DNA of 64,000 nt, from assembly GCA_044371545.1 (NCBI GenBank), contig JBILTM010000001.1, positions 30,316 through 94,315 on the forward strand, in the 5' to 3' direction. Every line of letters begins with the position of its first letter. Within the stretch, counting starts at the first letter, position 1. Shown piece after piece: positions 19,906 to 29,405 of the stretch. A program made the translations under genes and the position numbers. The notes beneath the pieces were generated by a model. The model made no database searches. It worked only from the letters and a program-made list of their open reading frames with translations, and had not been told where the DNA came from. The stretch is from Burkholderiaceae bacterium (lineage in GTDB: Bacteria > Pseudomonadota > Gammaproteobacteria > Burkholderiales > Burkholderiaceae_E).

Positions 19906-19938
19906 GGGACGAACCCGCGATTCTAGCGGGTTCGTCCC
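19906..19938 (-). terminator. Perfect 13-bp stem / 7-nt loop hairpin spanning the lnt stop codon; intercistronic terminator or processing/stability element
   Basis: GGGACGAACCCGC-gattcta-GCGGGTTCGTCCC read directly. The lnt TAG lies in the loop. No U-tract. Sits 34 nt upstream of the glyQ ATG. Confidence 0.4.
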
Positions 19939-21485
19939 GCGCGTCCCGTGCGCGAGGCGAGCGCGCAGGCGGCGACGAGCGCCAGCGCGCCGATCCATGC
20001 GGTCGCATCGCCGGCGCGCGCGAACGGCGTGAGGCCGGTGCGGCCCTGCACGCGCACGTCGAGCGACGCCGCGACGTGATCGGGCAGCCGCGCGAGCACG
20101 CGGCCGTCGGCGTCGATCGCCGCGGTCACGCCGGTGTTCGTCGCGCGCAGCATCGGGCGGCCGGTCTCGAGCGTGCGCATCCGCGCGATCGCGAGGTGCT
20201 GCGGCAGCGCGTGCGAGCGGCCGAACCAGGCGATGTTGCTGACGTTGGCGAGCACCGTCGCGCCGCGCTCGCCGCCGAGCGAGGTGCGCAACTCGTCGCC
20301 GAAGAGGTCCTCGTAGCAGACGTTGAAGGCGACCCGCTGCCCGCCGACCTCGAACGGCGGCTGGCGCGCGTCGCCGCGCGCGAAGTCGCCGAGCGGGATC
20401 TCCATCATCCGGACGAACCAGCCGAAGCCCCAGGGCACGAACTCGCCGAAGGGCACGAGGTGGCGCTTGTCGTAGCGCGGCGCGGGCGCGCCGGCGGGGT
20501 CGGCGCGCAGCAGCAGCACGCTGTTGGCGAGCGCGGGATCGCCGCCGCCCGCGGGCACGACGAACGCCGGCAGCCCGATCGCGATCGCGTGGCCGCGCGC
20601 GACGTGCGCGAGGATCCGCTCGGCGATCGGCGCGGGCGTACGGTCCCAGGGCAGCGTCCATGCGGTCTCCGGCAGCACGGTCAGCGTCGCGCGGCCGGCC
20701 TCGAAGCGGTCGGCGTAGTCCTGCATCGCGGCGACGGTGCGCTCCGGGCGGAACTTCATGTCCTGCGCGACGTTGCCCTGCACGAGGCGCACGTCGAGCG
20801 GCGGGCCCTCGGGCCGCGTCCAGGCGTCGCGCGGGACCGCGAGCGGCGCGAGCACGATCGCCGCGGCGAGGGCCGCGGCGAGGCCGCGCGTGCGCACCGC
20901 GTCGCGCGTGCCACCGCCCGCCGCGACCGCCGCGAGCGCGGCGACCGCGACCGCCGCGGCGCCGACGCCGAAGACGCCGGCAAGCGGCGCGAGCCGGTCG
21001 AGCGGCCCGTCGAGCTGCGCGTAGCCGATCGCGAGCCACGGAAAGCCGGTGAACACCGTGCCGCGGGCGAGCTCGGCGAGCGTCGTCGCGCCCGCGAGCC
21101 CGAGCGCGTGAACGATCGGGCCGCGCCCCGAGCAGGCGCGCGCGGCGAGCCACGCGGCGGCGGCCGGGTAGAGCGACAGGTAGGCCGCGAACAGCACGAC
21201 CGCGGCGGCGGCCATCGGCGCCGGCATGCCGCCGTAGTGGTGCATGCTGACGTAGAGCCACGCGAGCCCTGCGCCGAACCAGCCGAGCCCGAAGGCGAAC
21301 GCGAGGCCGCCCTGCGCGAGCGGGGTCGCGCCGCGCGCGGCCCGCGCGCGCAGCAGCGCGAACAGCGCGGCGAGCACCGCGAGCGCCCAGGCCCAGTGCG
21401 ACAGCGGCGCGAACGCGCTCGCGTGCGCGAGGCCGAGACCGAAGGCGAGCGCGACCGGTCCGAGGCGGGCGCGCATCGGCGTCAC
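19923..21485 (-). CDS. lnt: Apolipoprotein N-acyltransferase
   Basis: 520 aa. Polytopic N-terminal membrane domain plus a CN-hydrolase domain ([18 protein letters not shown]). lnt-corC-ybeY-ybeZ synteny. Confidence 0.93.
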
Positions 21486-21509
21486 GCGGACGCCCCGGCC
21501 GCGGGACGG

Positions 21510-22388
21510 TCAGCCTTCATCGGCCCCATCGTCCCTGTCGTCACCCTCGGGCGCCCGGCGCTCGACGCGCAGCAGCCTGACCGCGCGCGGGTCCGCGCGC
21601 AGCACCTCGACGCGCAGCGGCCCGAGCTCGACGCGATCGCCGCGGCGCGGCATCCGGCCGAGCCGCTCGGCGAGCAGCCCGCCGACGGTCTCGCTCGCGG
21701 CGTCGTCGAGCGCGGTGCCGAAGTGCGCGTCGAACTGCACGAGCGGCGTCAGCGCGCGCACCCGCCAGCGCGGGCCTTCGGGCCCGGGCGCCTCGACGAT
21801 GTTGGCGGCCGACTCGTCGAGGTCGAACTCGTCCTCGATGTCGCCGACGATCTGCTCGAGCACGTCCTCGATCGTGATCAGGCCCGCGACGCCGCCGTAC
21901 TCGTCGACGACGATCGCGAGGTGGTGCCGGTTCTGGCGGAAGTCGCGCAGCAGCACGTTGAGTCGCTTGGTCTCGGGGATGAACACCGGCGGGCGCAGCA
22001 GCTCGCGCACCGAGCCGGCGCGGCCGGACCACAGCCGCAGCAGGTCCTTCGCGTGCAGGATGCCGATCACGTTGTCGCGCTCGCCGTCGACGACCGGGAA
22101 GCGCGAGTGCGCGGTGCGGATCGCGAACGCGGCGATCGCCTCGACCGGGTCGGACACGTCGACGACGTCCATCTGCGGGCGGGGCACCATGATGTCGCCG
22201 GCCGACTGCTCGGCGACCTGCAGCACGCCCTCGATCATCGACATCGCCTCGGCATCGAGGAGGTCGCGCTCCTGCGACTGCCGCAGCAGCTGCAGCAGCT
22301 GGTCTCGGTCGTCGGGCGTGCGCAGCAGCATCGCCGACATGCGCTCGAGCAGGGACGGTCTCGTCCGGCTCGGCGGGGCGTCGGACAT
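21510..22388 (-). CDS. corC: CBS-domain Mg/Co efflux-associated protein CorC/YbeX
   Basis: [22 protein letters not shown] pair, C-terminal CorC_HlyC-type domain. Confidence 0.9.
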
Positions 22389-22462
22389 CGGAGGGGGTGG
22401 GGAGTCGGGACCGGCGGAGGATACCGGACTCGCCGCCCCGGTCCAAGCACGGCCCGGCGGGC

Positions 22463-22912
22463 TCAGCGGTAGGGGTCGGCGATGCGGAAGCGGCGCAGCA
22501 CCTCGACCTCGCGCGCCTCCATCTCGCGCGCTTCGCGCTCGTCCTCATGGTCCAGCCCCTGCGCGTGCAGCACGCCGTGCACGACCAGGTGCGCGAGATG
22601 GTCGCGCGGCGTCTTGCGCTGCGCGCGCGCCTCGCGACGCACGACCGGCAGGCACACGACGATGTCGGCCTGCACCGGCCCGTCGGTCGCGGGCGCCTCG
22701 TCGTACGCGAAGGTCAGCACGTTGGTCGCGTAGTCCTTGCCTCGGTAGTCGCGGTTGAGCGCGCGGCCCTCGGCCGCGCCGACGAAGCGCAGCGCGAGCG
22801 CGGCGTCGCGCGTGAGCGCGGCGCGGGCCCAGCGGCGCAGCTGCGCGCGGTCGGCGGGGCAGTCTCCGGCGCCGGGCTCGAACTGGATCGACAGCGCGAG
22901 GCGCGGGGGCAC
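22463..22912 (-). CDS. ybeY: Endoribonuclease YbeY (rRNA maturation factor)
   Basis: NRDYRGKDYATNVLTF and HLVVHGVLHAQGLDHE zinc motif. The ORF extends to the ATG at 23017 (which would overlap ybeZ by 38 nt). The GTG at 22912 gives a typical 149-aa YbeY. Start uncertain. Confidence 0.85.
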   Translation of the reverse strand: MPPRLALSIQFEPGAGDCPADRAQLRRWARAALTRDAALALRFVGAAEGRALNRDYRGKDYATNVLTFAYDEAPATDGPVQADIVVCLPVVRREARAQRKTPRDHLAHLVVHGVLHAQGLDHEDEREAREMEAREVEVLRRFRIADPYR

Positions 22913-22979
22913 GGGCGGGGTCGGCGGCGAAGCGCGCCGGCGGGCCGGATCCGGGGCCGGGCGCGACGTCCGCGCCGGC

Positions 22980-24032
22980 TCAGCCCGGGTCGCGCGGCGC
23001 GTGGCGCTCGTAGGCATCGACGATGCGGGCGACCAGCGGGTGACGGACGACGTCGCTGCTGTCGAACTCGGTGAACGCGATGCCGCGCACCTCGCGCAGG
23101 ACGCGGCGCGCCTCGATCAGCCCCGAGGGCTGGCCGCGCGGCAGGTCCATCTGCGTCATGTCGCCGGTGACCACCGCGCGCGAGCCGAATCCGATCCGCG
23201 TGAGGAACATCTTCATCTGCTCGGGCGTGGTGTTCTGCGCCTCGTCGAGGATGATGAAGGCACCGTTCAGCGTGCGCCCGCGCATGTAGGCGAGCGGCGC
23301 GATCTCGATCGCCTGCCGCTCGAACATCTTGGCGACGCGCTCGAAGCCCATCAGGTCGTACAGCGCGTCGTACAGCGGGCGCAGGTACGGGTCGACCTTC
23401 TGCGCGAGGTCGCCGGGCAGGAAGCCGAGCCGCTCGCCGGCCTCGACCGCGGGCCGGGTCAGCACGATCTTCTTGATCGCGTCGCGCTCGAGCGCGTCGA
23501 CCGCGCAGGCCACCGCGAGGTAGGTCTTGCCGGTGCCGGCCGGGCCGATGCCGAAGGTGATGTCGTGAGACAGGATGTTGCGCAGGTACTCGCGCTGGCG
23601 AGGCGTGCGGCCCTGCAGGTCTGCGCGGCGGGTGTGGAGCACCGGCGCGTCGTCGGCCGGCGCCGCCTCGGCCGCGGGGGCGGCGTCCCGCGGGCCCGCG
23701 TCGCGCGATGCGGGACGGCGCTCGCCGGGCGTGCGCAGCTCGACCAGGCCGAGCTGGATGTCCTCGATCGACAGCGGCGCGTCGGCGCGACGGTAGAAGT
23801 GCTCGAGCGCGCGGACCGCGTGCTTCGACTGCGAGCCGGGGCCCTCGACCGAGAAGGTGTCGGCGCGACGCGCGATGCGCACGTCGTAGGCCTCCTCGAT
23901 CTGGCGCAGGTTGTCGTCGACCGCGCCGCACAGGTTCGCGAGACGGCGGTTGTCGGCCTCGGCGGGCCGGTACTGGAGGACGCTGCTCTTCAAGTGGGGA
24001 CGGTCCCGGGTGTCCCGCGAGTGTACCGGCAA
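22980..24032 (-). CDS. ybeZ: PhoH-like ATPase YbeZ
   Basis: GIGPAGTGKTYLAVACAV Walker A, IILDEAQNTT, TGDMTQMDLP motifs. Confidence 0.93.
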   Translation of the reverse strand: MPVHSRDTRDRPHLKSSVLQYRPAEADNRRLANLCGAVDDNLRQIEEAYDVRIARRADTFSVEGPGSQSKHAVRALEHFYRRADAPLSIEDIQLGLVELRTPGERRPASRDAGPRDAAPAAEAAPADDAPVLHTRRADLQGRTPRQREYLRNILSHDITFGIGPAGTGKTYLAVACAVDALERDAIKKIVLTRPAVEAGERLGFLPGDLAQKVDPYLRPLYDALYDLMGFERVAKMFERQAIEIAPLAYMRGRTLNGAFIILDEAQNTTPEQMKMFLTRIGFGSRAVVTGDMTQMDLPRGQPSGLIEARRVLREVRGIAFTEFDSSDVVRHPLVARIVDAYERHAPRDPG

Positions 24033-24045
24033 CCGCTGCGCGCCC

Positions 24046-26235
24046 TCACGGATTGCGACGCAGGATCCCGACCCCGTTGACGGCGGGGCCGCCGCCGGGG
24101 CCGGAGATCGTGTAGCCCAGGCCCATGCGGGCCGCCTCCGGACCGAGGAAGGCGCCCGAGACCGCGGCCCGGCAGCCGCCCGAAGGCGCGCAGCCGAGCG
24201 CGCCGGGCGCGTCCGCCTGCACCGCCAGGTTGCCGCGGAAGGCGTTCGGGGCGGTCATCGTCAGGTTCGAGGCGGCCGGGTCGGCGAGGCCGCCGGTCGT
24301 CGCGAAGCGGTAGCGCGTGTCATCGGCGAAGCGGACCGCGGCCTCCAGGCCGATGCGCGTGTCGCGGCCCGCGCCGAAACGCACGACCGCGTCGGCGTTG
24401 AAGCTGCCGGGCGCCGACGAGCCGTCGGAGAAGGTCGGCGAGGTCGCGCCGGCGAGCGAATAGCGTGCGGAGCCCTCGGTCGGCATCGTCAGCGTCGGGA
24501 TGCCGACCAGATAGTGCATCCCGTCGCCCGAGCGCTGTACGTGCGCGCTCTCGCGTCCGAGCACCGCGAGCCGGGCCGTGCCGTCGATCCAGCGGCCCCA
24601 GACGGCGATGCCGTCGCCGCCGACGTCGGCGGTGCCCGCCTTGCCGCGCGACAGGCACAGCACCCCGGGGCACAACCCGACCGAAACGAGCTTCGCGCCG
24701 TCGAGCGCGACGCGCGCCGACGAGGTCGCGAGCACGGCGGTGTCGATCACCGGCGCCTGACGCAGGTGGACGTACAGCAGGCTCGCGTCGAGCGCGATCG
24801 GGCCGGTCTGGCTGGGGACGGGGAGGGAGGGGGAGGTGGGGAAGCCCGCCGAGGAGCCGGAGGAACCGGACGAAGCGGACGAACCGGACGAACCGGACGA
24901 ACCGGACGAAGCGGACGAACCGGACGCTACCGAAGAGCCCGAAGAGCCCGAGGCACCTGAATTTCCCGAAGACCCGCTCGTCCCCGAATTGCCGGTGCCC
25001 GTCGGGCCCGACGACGCCGTCGGCGCGGGGGAGTCCGTCCCGCTCGGACCCGCGCTGCCGCCGGTCCGGGCAGGGGCCGCGGTCCCCGCCGTGCTGCCCG
25101 CACCCGTGCCCGCGGCGCCGCCCGTCGCGACACCGCTGCTGTCCTGCGGACCCGCACTGCCCGCCAGCGCGAGCGTCGCGAGCGTCGGCGCCCCGTCCGC
25201 GTCGCGCTGCGCGCTCGGCGCGATCGCCGCCGCCGTCGGCCCCGTTCCCGTGCCCACGGGCAGCGCGGTCACGCCCGACGGCTCGTCGTCGACGCGGCCC
25301 GCGCCCGCCGAGCGCGCCGGCGCATCGCTGCCGTCGGTGCGCCCGTCGTCGTCCTTCGCGAGGGTCGGCGCCTCGGCGGGCGCGCGGCCGGCGCTCGTCG
25401 CCCGGCGCGTGCCGCCGGCGAGCGTGCCCGTGGCAGCCGGCGCGCCCGCCGTGGCGAGCGTCGCGGCCTGCGCCGACAGCACCGCGAAGCGCGCCCCCGC
25501 GCTCGCGCCGGCGTCCGCGTCGACGCGCCCCGCGCGTGCGATCGCATCGGCGACGGTGCCGCTGCTCCCGGGCATCGTCGACGACAGCACCGGCCGCTCC
25601 GTGGTCGGCGCCGCGGGCCGGTCGGCCGAGGGCGCATGCACCGTCCTGCCGGCGTCGACCTCGACCGTACCGCCGCGCGTGGTCACCGCGACCCGGCCCT
25701 GCGACACCATCACGCGTGTCCCGGCGCTGCGTCCCGGTCGGCATTGCGGATCGCACGCGGTCTCCTCGACGACGAACTCGGTGCCGCGCACCCCGACCGT
25801 CGCCGTCGGCGTGATCAGCTTGTAGTCCTCGTGCCGGCGCTTGCCGATCGCACCGGTCACCGTGCGCAGCGTGCCCCGCGTCAGCAGGTAGACCGCGCGC
25901 TGCGCGTCGCCCTCGAAGCGGTAGGCGTCGATCGTGAAGCGCGAGCCCGGCTGCAGCGATACGACCGAGCCGTCACTGAAGCGCATCTGGACGCGGCCGT
26001 CCGAACCGGTCTCGATGCGGTCGCCCGCCGAGACCGCGTCGCCGGTGATCGGGCGCCGCGTCGCGTCGCCGGCGGGTCCGGGCCGCACGACGACGACGTC
26101 GCCGGCGACGAGCCACAGCCGGGCGTCCTGGGCGAGCGCGGGTGCGGCGCACGCGAGCGCGACGGCAGCCGACGCCGCGCGCAGCGCCGTCGCCAGCCGC
26201 CGGAGCAGGCCGGCGCGGCAGCGTGTGCGGCGCAT
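24046..26235 (-). CDS. Secreted/surface protein with an N-terminal FecR domain, a ~300-aa disordered Ala/Gly/Ser/Thr linker and a C-terminal TbpB-like beta-barrel domain; candidate T11SS (Slam) cargo
   Basis: The ORF 24046..27042 was trimmed to the ATG at 26235 (MRRTRCRAGLLRRLATALRAASAAVALACAAPALAQD signal peptide). FecR-like GDRIETGSDGRVQMRFSDGSVVSLQPGSRFTID...VGVRGTEFVV. C-terminus WGRW...HYLVGIPT..MPTEGSARYSLAGAT...FNADAVVRFG...FRGNLAV...VSGAFLGPEAARMGLGYTI matches the TbpB/fHbp-type barrel pattern. The start lies 2 nt after the stop of the Slam-like gene. Confidence 0.7.
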   Translation of the reverse strand: MRRTRCRAGLLRRLATALRAASAAVALACAAPALAQDARLWLVAGDVVVVRPGPAGDATRRPITGDAVSAGDRIETGSDGRVQMRFSDGSVVSLQPGSRFTIDAYRFEGDAQRAVYLLTRGTLRTVTGAIGKRRHEDYKLITPTATVGVRGTEFVVEETACDPQCRPGRSAGTRVMVSQGRVAVTTRGGTVEVDAGRTVHAPSADRPAAPTTERPVLSSTMPGSSGTVADAIARAGRVDADAGASAGARFAVLSAQAATLATAGAPAATGTLAGGTRRATSAGRAPAEAPTLAKDDDGRTDGSDAPARSAGAGRVDDEPSGVTALPVGTGTGPTAAAIAPSAQRDADGAPTLATLALAGSAGPQDSSGVATGGAAGTGAGSTAGTAAPARTGGSAGPSGTDSPAPTASSGPTGTGNSGTSGSSGNSGASGSSGSSVASGSSASSGSSGSSGSSASSGSSGSSAGFPTSPSLPVPSQTGPIALDASLLYVHLRQAPVIDTAVLATSSARVALDGAKLVSVGLCPGVLCLSRGKAGTADVGGDGIAVWGRWIDGTARLAVLGRESAHVQRSGDGMHYLVGIPTLTMPTEGSARYSLAGATSPTFSDGSSAPGSFNADAVVRFGAGRDTRIGLEAAVRFADDTRYRFATTGGLADPAASNLTMTAPNAFRGNLAVQADAPGALGCAPSGGCRAAVSGAFLGPEAARMGLGYTISGPGGGPAVNGVGILRRNP
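24845..24960. repeat. In-frame 9-bp tandem repeat tract (core CGAACCGGA/CGAAGCGGA units) encoding (Ser-Ser-Gly)n in the cargo linker
   Basis: Read directly: ...ggaaccgga cgaagcgga cgaaccgga cgaaccgga cgaaccgga cgaagcgga cgaaccgga cgctaccga agagcccga agagcccga... The minus-strand translation is SGSSGNSGASGSSGSSVASGSSASSGSSGSSGSSASSGSSGSS. Confidence 0.85.
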
Positions 26236-26237
26236 GC

Positions 26238-27611
26238 TCAGAACCGGTAGCGGGCGTAGACGAAGGCCTGCGTGCGGCGGAAGTCGTTCGGCGCGAGCGT
26301 CGACGCGCTGTGCGTCCACGCGAGGCCCGGCATCAGCGTCAGCGATCGGCCGACGTCGTGCTCGAGGCCGATCCGCAGGTCGTGCTGATGGTCCAAGCGC
26401 ACGACGCCGAACAGCGGCTCGATCGCGTCGAACGTGCGTCGCTCGAACGACCAGCCCGCGTTCGCGCGCCAGCCCGGCGCCAGCGTCGCGCCGAGCGCGG
26501 TGCGCAGGCCGACGAAGCCGAACGACAGCTGCGGCAGGTCGGCGTGCACGGTCTCGTCGCCGCCGTGCAGCGCCGCGGCGAACGTCGGGGCGCGAGGGCC
26601 GCCCCAGCCGTGCGCGAGCGTCAGGCCCGCGGCGATGCGTCGCGCGTCGCGCACCGGCTGGTCGGGGAAGGTCAGGTCGAACGCCTGCGCGTAGGCGCCG
26701 AGCTGCGTGCGCGGCCCGCTGTCCCACTGCCACTGGGCGATCGCGCCGGCCGCGTCGCGGAACGCCGTGCCGTCGAGTCGCAGGTGCTGGTACTGCAGGC
26801 TCATGGAGTATCGATGCGCTCCGAACGCGGACGACAGGCCGGCGGACGCCTCCGCCGAACCGGTATCGATATTGTGCTGGCTCGCATTCGTGCGTTGGGC
26901 GATCTGAAGACCGGTAGTCCAGTCGAGCCAACCGTTGATCGGTGCGACGTACGTGATGCCCGCGGACAGCGCCGCGAACGCGCTCTCGCGCGGCCGGCTC
27001 GCGGGCAGCGGCACCAGCGCCTGCCCGTCCGACAGCACCCACTCGCCGAAGGAGCTGCCGAAGTTGACGTTGCTGTCCCAGCCCGCGCCGGCCTCGAGCA
27101 GCACGATCCAGCGCGGCGTGCGACCGTCGCCGAGCCGCGCGACGGTGTCGAGGTAGCGCTGCACCGTGTCGCGCACAGCGGGTGGCAGCTCGCCGCGCGC
27201 GACCGCCTCGAGCTCGCGGCGCGCGGCCTCGAGCTCGCGCAGCTGCAGGTGCGCGCGGCCGATCTCCGCACGTGCGGGCAGGTTCGACGGGTCGGCGGCG
27301 AGCACGCGCTCGAGCGCGAGCACCGCGATGCCGGGCCGGCCGGAGTCGAGCGCCGCGAGGCCGAGCAGGTAGTCGAAGTCGGGCGCGCCGGCGAAGCGCA
27401 CGGCCTGCGCGTCGAGCAGCCGGAACGCGTCGTCGGGCCGCTTCGCGTCGAGCGCGGCGCGCGCGTCGGCGAGCAGCCGCGACAGCACCGCGGCGTCGGA
27501 CGTCGCCGCCGGCGACTGCGCGCCGCCCGGCACGACCGCGCCGGGCGCGAGGACCGTCAGTGCGAGCGCCACGGCGAACGCACGCACGGCGAGCGCGGCC
27601 GCTCGCGGCAT
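26238..27611 (-). CDS. Outer-membrane TPR + beta-barrel protein, Slam/DUF560-like (type XI secretion system component)
   Basis: The ORF 26238..27677 was trimmed to the ATG at 27611 (signal peptide MPRAAALAVRAFAVALALTVLAPGAVVPGGAQS). TPR-like helices (DFDYLLGLAALDSGRPGIAVLALERVLAADPSNLPARAEIGRAHLQL), then GAGWDSNVN and alternating beta-strand sequence. The C-terminus ends in the OMP beta-signal ...FVYARYRF. 457 aa, similar in size and layout to Neisseria Slam. No HMM was run. Confidence 0.62.
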   Translation of the reverse strand: MPRAAALAVRAFAVALALTVLAPGAVVPGGAQSPAATSDAAVLSRLLADARAALDAKRPDDAFRLLDAQAVRFAGAPDFDYLLGLAALDSGRPGIAVLALERVLAADPSNLPARAEIGRAHLQLRELEAARRELEAVARGELPPAVRDTVQRYLDTVARLGDGRTPRWIVLLEAGAGWDSNVNFGSSFGEWVLSDGQALVPLPASRPRESAFAALSAGITYVAPINGWLDWTTGLQIAQRTNASQHNIDTGSAEASAGLSSAFGAHRYSMSLQYQHLRLDGTAFRDAAGAIAQWQWDSGPRTQLGAYAQAFDLTFPDQPVRDARRIAAGLTLAHGWGGPRAPTFAAALHGGDETVHADLPQLSFGFVGLRTALGATLAPGWRANAGWSFERRTFDAIEPLFGVVRLDHQHDLRIGLEHDVGRSLTLMPGLAWTHSASTLAPNDFRRTQAFVYARYRF

Positions 27612-27669
27612 CGAAAGCAGGGTCTCGACGTCCCGCGTCGCCGGGGTTCCGCGCGCGCTGGCGCGGGGC

Positions 27670-29010
27670 TCAGTCACGGATCGGGAGTTCGCCGCGCAAC
27701 GAGTGCGGCAGCGCCGAGGTGATGGCGAGATCGACCAGGTGCCCGACCAGGCGCGGCGCGCCGGCGAAGTTGACGACCCGGTTGTTCTCGGTGCGCCCCG
27801 AGAGCTCGTTCGGGTCCTTGCGCGACGGGCCCTCGACCAGCACGCGCTGTGTCGTGCCGACCATCGCCTCGGAGATCCGCCGCGCGTGCCCGTCGGTCGC
27901 GGCCTGCAGCCGCTGCAGCCGCGCGAGCTTGGTCGCCTGCGGCGTGTCGTCGGCGAGGTCCGCCGCCGGCGTGCCGGGGCGCGGGCTGTAGACGAACGAG
28001 AACGAGCCGTCGAAGCCGACGTCCTCGATCAGCGCCATCGTGCGCTGGAAGTCCTGCTCGGTCTCGCCGGGGAAGCCGACGATGAAGTCCGAGGTGATCG
28101 AGACGTCCGGCCGCGCGGCGCGAAGCCTGCGGATGATCGACTTGTACTCGAGCACGGTGTAGCCGCGCTTCATCGCCGCGAGCACGCGGTCCGAACCCGA
28201 CTGCACCGGCAGGTGCACGTGCGCGGCGAGCTTCGCGATCGTGCCGTGCGCGTCGACGAGCCGCTGAGAGAACTCGCGCGGATGCGACGTGGTGTAGCGG
28301 ATGCGCTCGATGCCGGGCATCTCGGCGACGTAGTCGAGCAGCATCGCGAAGTCGGCGCGCTCCTCGCCCGCGCCGGTCGCGCCGAGGTAGGCGTTGACGT
28401 TCTGCCCGAGCAGCGTCACCTCGCGCACGCCCTGCTCGGCGAGCCCCGCGACCTCGGTCAGCACGTCCTCGAACGGGCGCGAGACTTCCTCGCCGCGCGT
28501 GTAGGGCACCACGCAGAAGCTGCAGTACTTGCTGCACCCCTCCATGATCGACACGAACGCGCTCGCGCCCTCGACGCGGGCCGGCGGCAGGTGGTCGAAC
28601 TTCTCGATCTCGGGGAAGCTGATGTCGACCTGCGGCCGGCCGGTGCGCCTGCGCGCTGCGATCAGCTGAGGCAGTCGGTGCAGCGTCTGCGGCCCGAACA
28701 CCACGTCGACGTACGGTGCGCGGCTGACGATGTTCGCGCCCTCCTGGCTCGCGACGCAGCCGCCCACGCCGATCACCATGTCCGGGCGCTCGCGCTTGAG
28801 CGCGCGCAGCCGGCCGAGGTCGGAGAACACCTTCTCCTGCGCCTTCTCGCGCACCGAGCAGGTGTTGAACAGCACGATGTCGGCCTGGGCGGGATCGTCG
28901 GTCGCCTCGACGCCGTCGGCCTGTGCCTGGCCGAGCACGTCGGCCATCTTGGCCGAGTCGTACTCGTTCATCTGGCAGCCGAACGTGCGGATGTAGAGCT
29001 TCACGGGCAT
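27670..29010 (-). CDS. miaB: tRNA-2-methylthio-N6-dimethylallyladenosine synthase MiaB
   Basis: The ORF 27670..29082 was trimmed to the ATG at 29010 ([19 protein letters not shown]...). Radical-SAM CSKYCSFC motif and TRAM domain. Confidence 0.96.
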
Positions 29011-29024
29011 GGGGCGGCTCCGGC

Positions 29025-29405
29025 TCAGCGCTGCTGGGCGGCGCGTCGCGCGGCCGCGATCCGGGCCGAGATCGTGCGCCACTCCTCGTCGGTCACCAGC
29101 CAGACCTGGACGACCTCGCCGAGGCTGCCGCGCTGGTAGGCGACGCGCCGCTCGCCCTCGACGGTCGACGGCGGCCGGATGATGTTCGACTCGTCGCGGA
29201 TCCGCGTGCCCGGGCCGAGCAGCACCGGCTTGCCGTCGATCGTCGCCTCGGGGAACACGCCGATGCGCAGCCGACCGAGCTCGACGCCTTCGGGGATCGC
29301 GCGCTGCAGCGGCATCTGCTGCGCGAGCGCCGGCGCGCCCGCGACCGCGGCGAGGGCCAGGGCGGCGCAGACGAGGCGCGGACGGAGGCGGGCGGGCAGG
29401 TGCAT
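29025..29405 (-). CDS. Hypothetical secreted protein (signal peptide, 126 aa)
   Basis: [30 protein letters not shown] signal peptide. Lies 14 nt upstream of miaB on the same strand. I do not recognise a family. Confidence 0.45.

Follow-up and report, generated by a model that had tools for sequence, protein, structure and literature searches.

The type 11 secretion system (T11SS) employs outer-membrane proteins (OMPs) of the Slam or DUF560 type, and its canonical cargo are lipoproteins such as TbpB, LbpB and fHbp of Neisseria and Pasteurellaceae. To our knowledge, no more than seven OMPs have been verified to mediate type 11 secretion, and these all come from animal-associated bacteria; the catalogue of cargo has been drawn from lipoproteins and haemophores. 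Among the systems closest to the case presented here are hemophilin and HphA, which possess a Sec signal peptide without a lipid anchor and are encoded next to a DUF560-type OMP. It is established that T11SS cargo can be soluble, and that it can possess a long disordered N-terminal region (PMC12282271). In a 64,000-nt stretch of a Burkholderiaceae bacterium (GCA_044371545.1, contig JBILTM010000001.1, positions 30,316-94,315), referred to as the window, two adjacent genes on the reverse strand probably represent a dedicated T11SS pair of an OMP and its cargo. The cargo is a protein of four parts, in which a signal peptide is followed by a FecR-like domain, a low-complexity linker and a C-terminal lobe of the TbpB/hemophilin type. 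Its features, and those of the OMP, are as follows.

24046-26235, reverse strand: cargo gene, present as an open reading frame (ORF) for a 729-aa protein plus stop codon.
26131-26235, reverse strand: signal peptide (residues 1-35), with an Arg-rich n-region, an Ala-rich h-region, a signal peptidase I (SPase I) site ALA-QD and an embedded Cys29 in an atypical, lipobox-like ALAC context.
25591-26130, reverse strand: FecR-like beta-rich domain (residues 36-215), with a Pfam FecR match to residues 72-182 (nt 25690-26022).
25780-25785, reverse strand: Gly151-Thr152 in VGVRGTEF, provisionally aligned with the self-cleaving Gly181-Thr182 of Escherichia coli FecR.
24796-25590, reverse strand: linker, presumably disordered (residues 216-480, 265 aa), 83% Ala/Gly/Ser/Thr/Pro/Asp and 10% hydrophobic.
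25168-25227, reverse strand: conserved motif inside the linker (residues 337-356, IAPSAQRDADGAPTLATLA), family consensus [VI][SA]PN.(R/Q)R..G.LL.V.
24857-24926, reverse strand: tandem array of 7.8 copies of a 9-nt unit, encoding Ser/Gly repeats.
24049-24795, reverse strand: C-terminal lobe (residues 481-729, 249 aa), from an AlphaFold (AF2) model and Foldseek.
Residues 481-505, reverse strand: lead-in of the lobe, of low confidence in the AF2 model.
24502-24714, reverse strand: beta-rich handle (about residues 508-578), from the AF2 model.
24049-24471, reverse strand: eight-stranded barrel (about residues 589-729), from the AF2 model.
26238-27677, reverse strand: Slam-like OMP (T11SS/DUF560 type), with a TPR domain, a 14-stranded barrel and the C-terminal sequence YARYRF.
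27126-27506, reverse strand: periplasmic TPR domain of the OMP (residues 58-184; TPR_19 at E 1.2e-6 and TPR_16 in Pfam), helical repeats in the model.
About 26241-27113, reverse strand: 14-strand barrel of the OMP (residues 189-478), from the AF2 model, with a barrel pLDDT (predicted local distance difference test) of about 95.

An earlier interpretation of this gene from its letters alone (the sequence-only reading) had proposed a chimera of FecR domain, disordered linker and TbpB-like barrel. Pfam, composition and the structure model bear out this architecture, and in regard to the doubt about the start codon, homologues share the ATG start. Every string quoted in that reading is present in the protein: GDRIETGSDGRVQMRFSDGSVVSLQPGSRFTI and VGVRGTEFVV (within residues 71-156), WGRW (546-549), HYLVGIPT (574-581), MPTEGSARYSL (584-594), VSGAFLGPEAARMGLGY (692-708), VALAC with Cys29, and ALA-QD after residue 35.

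The lobe was modelled by AF2 from an alignment with six homologues. The model (pLDDT 83.4, predicted template modelling score 0.83) is confident except in the first 25 residues, and presents short strands followed by eight long ones. When it was compared with the PDB by Foldseek, the top 30 matches were all TbpB, hemophilin (A. baumannii, H. haemolyticus), HphA (Vibrio, Stenotrophomonas) or the C-domain of NHBA, with fHbp coming next, so that the top matches of the predicted fold are exactly the known Slam/T11SS substrates. The best match was TbpB (4qq1, E 5.7e-06, probability 1.00), and the others included 7re4, 8gm3/8gmm, 6om5, 6cuj (NHBA) and 2w81 (fHbp). No integral eight-strand membrane barrel of the OmpA, OmpX or PagP kind was found among the top fold matches of the lobe, and the cargo ends in ILRRNP, without the aromatic C-terminal signal of OMPs. 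These fold matches to soluble cargo, together with the non-aromatic terminus, therefore indicate one soluble handle-plus-barrel lobe, in which two short-range Cys pairs (522/527 and 682/688) are conserved. The TbpB/fHbp-type barrel of the sequence-only reading is thus supported as a fold, although the unit comprises about 249 aa instead of about 200 and no sequence model detects it.

The resemblance to hemophilin and HphA (7re4; 8gm3/8gmm; 6om5) extends to size, as the single handle and barrel are about as large as whole hemophilin/HphA chains (218-252 aa), with fold matches at E 3e-5 to 4e-4 for HphA and 7re4 and 1.6e-3 for 6om5. The sequence identity, however, is only 12-15%, an additional 445 aa of FecR domain and spacer precede the lobe, and neither TonB-dependent receptor nor haem genes occur near the locus. 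With TbpB, LbpB and fHbp, the cargo shares the lobe fold, the C-terminal lobe that is presumed to be the Slam recognition element, and an N-terminal anchor position ahead of the lobes. In contrast to these proteins, it is most likely not lipidated and begins with a folded FecR-like domain instead of a lipid and an anchor peptide; it also comes from environmental Burkholderiales and a housekeeping operon, while the former belong to host-restricted pathogens and an iron-uptake locus. Two classes recently described by Grossman et al. 2025 (PMC12282271), one named for a disordered N-terminus and the other comprising multi-lobe Sphingomonas/Psychrobacter surface proteins, are likewise similar, in that a long disordered region precedes a C-terminal barrel, and in that some relatives of the cargo contain several handle-barrel pairs. 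Those proteins, however, are mostly lipoproteins without a folded N-terminal domain.

The partner gene lies immediately upstream. The ATG of the cargo gene is located 2 nt past the TGA of the OMP gene (...ttc tga gc atg cgc...), a junction suggesting translational coupling. The OMP ORF as listed opens at a GTG and overlaps miaB by 8 nt (27611-27677); translation more likely begins at Met23 (nt 27611), the first residue of a signal peptide, so that the 22 residues before it are probably not translated. The AF2 model of the OMP has an overall pLDDT of 89.6. Fourteen strands is the topology predicted for Slam. Homologues of the OMP number hundreds, and among 60 full-length ones (41-83% identity) that were scanned individually, 46 match PF04575 (SlipAM), the best at E 2.4e-18, and 15 match TPR_Slam. 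The OMP of the window can therefore be regarded as a divergent member at the edge of the PF04575 model, its membership being given by transitivity.

The OMP model could also be read in a different way. Its fold search returned BcsC, PelBC, CymA, OmpG and FadL, i.e., generic matches to TPR barrels and 14-strand porins that are not discriminating, and its comparison with PDB sequences returned designed TPR proteins and MamA only. Since BcsC and PelBC are the best PDB fold matches, and PF04575 has also been assigned to PgaA-like proteins (PMC8406197), the two genes might not form a secretion pair at all: the OMP could export a polysaccharide, as BcsC, PelB and PgaA do, or the cargo could be a periplasmic FecR protein held by its C-terminal barrel, which would be an eight-strand membrane anchor of the OmpA/PagP type. 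Polysaccharide synthase genes are missing from all loci with gene tables, the OMP model has 14 strands and not 16, and the lobe, as described above, matches soluble TbpB-type barrels instead of OmpA, OmpX or PagP and lacks an aromatic C-terminal residue. We consider such an explanation the least probable of all those discussed here.

The association between the two genes is strict. A scan of GTDB, with one genome per species, yielded 20 loci with the lobe, all in Burkholderiales/Betaproteobacteria metagenome-assembled genomes (MAGs), including Lautropia, Limnobacter and Zeimonas. Upstream DNA was sufficient in 14 of them, and all 14 have OMP, FecR domain and lobe in this order on one strand, the other six being cut by contig ends. 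Furthermore, three distant multi-lobe relatives in other genomic contexts follow an OMP of this kind: P0136 (FecR and four lobes, 1302 aa) directly follows an OMP with an unmarked PF04575 match, P0142 (five lobes, 2462 aa) comes directly after an OMP that matches TPR_Slam weakly, and P0134 after a homologue of the OMP. The link between lobe and OMP is therefore independent of the local synteny, and the proposal that the architecture adjoins a Slam/DUF560-type gene holds in the 14 species loci as well as in these three relatives.

In the window, the pair is inserted, with minimal gaps, between miaB and phoH (ybeZ) of the widely conserved cluster miaB-phoH-ybeY-corC-lnt-glyQ-glyS (19923-29082, reverse strand), and the same insertion was seen in loci L001, L004, L007 and L008. 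Six independent contigs share the order miaB, OMP, FecR-linker-lobe gene, phoH, ybeY, corC, lnt, which continues through glyQ/glyS in the longer ones. The cargo gene ends 13 nt before phoH. Such a position in a housekeeping operon suggests co-transcription with housekeeping genes and not iron-regulated expression.

A search with the full-length protein returned nine proteins only, a low number probably due to a word index dominated by the low-complexity linker, and the size of the family was taken from an exhaustive profile search and from the neighbours of OMP homologues. Seven homologues share the three-part architecture in the full-length alignment, and further ones were found downstream of OMP homologues. 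When 1.84 billion representative proteins were searched with the lobe profile, 1081 matched at E <= 0.001 and 180 at E <= 1e-30, and the lobe is a separate, large sequence family outside the coverage of Pfam. Among the best 150 and the first matches of this search, 24 proteins combine FecR with one lobe and 11 combine FecR with two to four lobes, while about 95 contain two to six lobes and no FecR match by the N-domain profile. Several of the latter nevertheless give sub-threshold Pfam FecR matches right after the signal peptide. A small group of two-lobe proteins of about 580 aa has clear lipoboxes and no FecR, and by sequence these look like classical surface lipoproteins of the TbpB type; the two to six tandem lobes of the relatives can likewise be compared with two-lobed TbpB. 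Publicly, members of the family go under the name 'FecR domain-containing protein' or 'hypothetical protein'. As side observations, members P0130-P0278 and those of loci L030, L032 and L033 reach up to six tandem lobes and up to 2462 aa, and in many members of the family the signal peptide is followed by a motif resembling A-[AD]-[VI]-LF-S-S.

In regard to the way in which the cargo leaves the cytoplasm, the Sec signal peptide expected of T11SS cargo can be read directly from the protein, its site is conserved in homologues, and the type of cleavage follows from their comparison. The site AXA-[AQ]DG is kept in all homologues, directly ahead of the first strand of the FecR domain, while the signal-peptide Cys is absent from most of them, which makes cleavage by SPase I after Ala35 the more likely event. 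Export by the Tat pathway was considered in view of RR pairs in the n-region, and rejected, as homologues lack these pairs.

Alternatively, the protein could be a true surface lipoprotein, whose Cys29 is acylated (by Lgt, signal peptidase II and Lnt) and which is then flipped to the surface by Slam, like TbpB; the FecR domain would in that case begin seven residues from the lipid anchor. Cys29 ends the hydrophobic stretch in VALAC and, by our own reading, fits the permissive PROSITE-type lipobox rule, and better lipoboxes stand at the equivalent place in three near relatives (LLAC in P0002, LAAC in P0162 and LTGC in P0200). In addition, the canonical substrates of Slam are lipidated, and lnt belongs to the same gene cluster. 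However, position -3 of the putative lipobox is occupied by Ala instead of Leu, Val or Ile, and most homologues have no signal-peptide Cys, yet all have AXA directly before the FecR domain. Moreover, the clear lipoproteins of the lobe family constitute a separate two-lobe group without FecR, and the arrangement miaB-phoH-ybeY-corC-lnt is a housekeeping one, unrelated to the inserted pair. Judged from these sequence comparisons, a non-lipidated protein cleaved after Ala35 is favoured with fair confidence, and lipidation at Cys29 seems unlikely, although in view of the three near relatives it may occur in this sub-clade. The ambiguity of the signal peptide noted in the sequence-only reading, where lipoprotein and soluble protein stood side by side, is genuine for a single sequence, but it is largely resolved toward the AXA site once homologues are compared.

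The N-terminal domain matches the Pfam family FecR (PF04773) at residues 72-182 with E 3.5e-14 and 53 bits against a cutoff of 24, giving statistical support to the assignment previously proposed for residues of about 45-150. A Cys pair in the motif CDPxCxPG (residues 161/165) is conserved. Partial NCBIfam matches concern LipL45 (E 2.4e-12) and Lsa33 (E 2e-10), FecR-type proteins of Leptospira, at 47 bits against an equivalog cutoff of 350. Similarly to the cargo, the Leptospira proteins are exported to the envelope and contain a FecR-type domain without being regulators, but they are spirochaete lipoproteins without a TbpB-type lobe and without a Slam partner. The module is found once per protein and always at the extreme N-terminus, starting less than about 10 residues past the AXA site.

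FecR domains occur in FecR, FoxR and PupR, anti-sigma regulators of cell-surface signalling, and a role of the cargo as a FecR-type signalling component, i.e., a periplasmic sensor reporting to a TonB-dependent transducer or a sigma factor, with an incidental downstream domain, has to be considered. The PF04773 match and the conserved Gly-Thr bond are common to both, and published statistics on gene neighbourhoods list FecR together with T11SS OMP genes (PMC12282271, supplement). Nevertheless, the FecR domain here directly follows a cleavable signal peptide, with neither cytoplasmic anti-sigma domain nor transmembrane helix, and Pfam detects no other domain in the protein, including a C-terminal part of the DUF4974/STN type. 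Genes for extracytoplasmic function (ECF) sigma factors or TonB-dependent receptors and transducers were found neither next to the pair in the window nor in the 6-8 kb flanks of related loci with gene tables, where the neighbours are miaB, phoH, ybeY, corC and lnt, and the invariant partner is the Slam-type OMP. With its defining parts missing, the signalling explanation is already contradicted and appears highly improbable; the FecR-like module of this protein is not an anti-sigma factor.

The Gly-Thr dipeptide is invariant in 20 of 20 aligned diverse N-domains. FecR and FoxR self-cleave at a Gly-Thr bond via a non-enzymatic N-O acyl shift (PMC9249621), and when the profile of the N-domain was aligned with FecR of E. 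coli K-12 by hhalign, Gly151-Thr152 fell on Gly181-Thr182; this alignment is statistically weak (probability 3.4%, E 0.013), and the register is for that reason provisional.

A second resemblance concerns the modules that retain adhesins on the cell. Residues 42-105 match the NCBIfam model for LapA's retention module (NF033682) at E 8e-5, with 22.8 bits against a cutoff of 50, i.e., below cutoff. A single N-domain sequence had no matches in the PDB, while a profile of 20 sequences gave one significant match, to 5ix9 (E 2.6e-4), which extends over the N-domain's first half. This structure is the N-terminal domain of MpIBP, the Marinomonas ice-binding RTX adhesin, and it served as the template for modelling the LapA retention module, which plugs a TolC-like pore from the periplasmic side and thereby holds the adhesin on the cell (10.1101/198937). 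By sequence, the resemblance of the N-domain to a retention module is consistent but borderline, and among the papers listed in our literature search we found none linking FecR domains with adhesin retention modules. Both kinds of protein begin with a small beta domain, continue with a flexible segment rich in Gly and have a C-terminal export signal, but LapA and MpIBP are exported in one step by a type 1 secretion system, in contrast to a T11SS acting after Sec. The cargo accordingly carries a Sec signal peptide, has no RTX-repeat match in Pfam or NCBIfam, and has no Lap genes nearby.

The linker between the two folded parts was confirmed as a low-complexity region, narrower (residues 216-480) than the stretch of about 200-500 first proposed. 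Among 39 distinct single-lobe family members, its length ranges from 90 to 516 aa (median 263), and its sequence is not conserved. A relative with 99% identity (P0001) is 3 aa shorter in the Ser/Gly repeat, and the length of the linker therefore varies even between close strains. The sole exception to this lack of conservation is the motif at residues 337-356, located 40-190 aa upstream of the lobe in most of the family members searched (including L001, L007, L008, L023, L024, L028, L029, P0006 and P0140), and the full-length alignment shows no variation at R344 and G348. Docking, processing, or the donation of a strand to the handle are possible roles of this motif. Weak matches to TcdA1 (E 0.002-0.02), obtained in the PDB sequence search over a Gly/Ser-rich stretch, were judged to be due to chance. 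At locus L006 (7443-10056 of a 500-kb contig), the cargo gene is split into ORFs of 615 and 245 aa within a GGT-repeat tract, which may be due to a frameshift introduced in assembly or sequencing, or to a tract that is indeed prone to slippage.

Taken as a T11SS pair, the two genes could operate in the following way. The 729-aa protein would be exported by Sec, and SPase I would most likely cut after Ala35, leaving no lipid anchor. The cognate OMP, with its TPR domain and 14-strand barrel, would recognize the C-terminal handle-plus-barrel lobe and move the protein across the outer membrane, as for hemophilin/HphA, so that the lobe would end outside the cell. The Ala/Gly/Ser/Thr/Pro-rich region would act as a flexible spacer whose length evolves freely, and in the default topology the FecR module would follow the lobe through the channel and become surface-exposed or released. 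The analysis shows the domain identities, the fold of the lobe, the 14 strands of the OMP model, the strict pairing and the conserved AXA site; we infer the secretion, the direction of translocation and the final location of the FecR module, and the evidence equally allows a displayed or released FecR module and one that acts as a periplasmic stopper or anchor while the lobe is outside.

Several observations weigh against this interpretation, or against parts of it. TM-scores of the lobe to PDB structures are moderate (0.35-0.53), residues 481-729 have no match at E <= 1 in Pfam or NCBIfam, where TbpB_B_D and the lipoprotein C/fHbp families were of interest, and no meaningful match was obtained among PDB sequences. 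The OMP of the window itself does not match PF04575 (DUF560/SlipAM) at E <= 1, and no Slam structure occurs among the PDB fold matches of its model. All the relatives retrieved come from metagenome assemblies or MAGs. In addition, Slam was shown to pass only unfolded TbpB substrate (PMC9090332, in which the term for the 14-strand topology does not occur), and a FecR domain that is folded and disulfide-bonded in the periplasm might therefore not pass, and it is not obvious what a freely released protein would need a long spacer for.

The last two points lead to a variant of the T11SS pair in which nothing but the lobe and some of the spacer would reach the outside. The FecR-like head would fold in the periplasm, its CDPxC pair would be oxidised, and it could not pass the channel. 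The protein would stay threaded through its own Slam with the FecR domain as a non-lipid anchor, like the LapA/MpIBP retention module in a TolC-like pore, and by analogy with FecR, self-cleavage at Gly151-Thr152 could be the release step. Besides the translocation of unfolded TbpB only, this topology agrees with the two retention-module matches (NF033682 and 5ix9), with the otherwise periplasmic location of FecR domains, and with the single, extreme N-terminal FecR module in proteins whose lobes range from one to six. As the clear lipoproteins of the lobe family are without FecR, the module occupies the position of the lipid anchor in TbpB-type proteins. The invariant Gly-Thr, in its provisional register, falls on the cleavage bond of FecR. 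Likewise, a spacer of such variable length is sensible for a tethered protein, since one fixed end is needed for a long spacer to be of use, and the translational coupling suggested by the 2-nt junction could favour comparable amounts of both proteins.

However, both retention-module matches are borderline, below curated cutoffs, and may reflect only a fold shared with FecR. A T11SS substrate that stalls is without precedent, it is not established in which direction the T11SS translocates its cargo, and neither LapG/LapD-type genes nor a TAAG site is present. The FecR-domain proteins of Leptospira also carry NCBIfam names of a lipoprotein (LipL45) and a surface adhesin (Lsa33). All considered, we regard a periplasmic stopper as a tentative possibility that is rather unlikely, and the full scenario, in which a lobe on a disordered leash is held by a FecR stopper as a lipid-free T11SS anchor with a Gly-Thr release switch, either convergent with or homologous to the LapA module, as slightly more doubtful still.

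In regard to the remaining part of the window, no second copy and no tRNA genes were found in it. Its G+C content is about 74-75%, and long spurious ORFs are abundant; very long overlapping ORFs in several frames across 16-32 kb, including one at 24046-27042 on the reverse strand, are composition artefacts and not genes. The corresponding 998-aa ORF, which opens at GTG 27042, was rejected as a longer version of the cargo gene, as it overlies the OMP gene in a different frame and the ATG is the start in homologues; such an ORF is a typical artefact at about 75% G+C.

The sequence-only reading had suggested a class of cargo not described before, and in the T11SS literature searched the FecR-linker-lobe architecture was indeed not found. 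Neither Hooda et al. 2017 nor Grossman et al. 2021 discuss FecR as T11SS cargo, and the main text of Grossman et al. 2025 does not do so either. PF04773 appears only in the supplementary tables of co-occurrence with T11SS OMP genes, beside sigma-70 families (Grossman et al. 2025, PMC12282271), and a preprint on Slam and hemophores treats FecR solely as a marker of iron loci. Within this literature the architecture is undescribed, while mechanistically it is a variant of a known system.

If the two genes are the T11SS pair that we consider probable, the locus defines a further cargo design, in which a FecR-like head is joined by a spacer of unconstrained length to a lobe from a divergent family missed by current sequence models. 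This design is common in environmental Burkholderiales and related Betaproteobacteria, where it resides within a housekeeping cluster rather than an iron locus. It would thus extend the reach of the T11SS, and the lobe profile, with its 1081 representatives, could be used to find more cargo of this kind. At the same time, it places the FecR domain outside a regulatory context. If, furthermore, the FecR-like head does act as a stopper, the pair would show by what means a T11SS substrate without a lipid remains attached to the cell, and would link FecR domains to the retention modules of adhesins.

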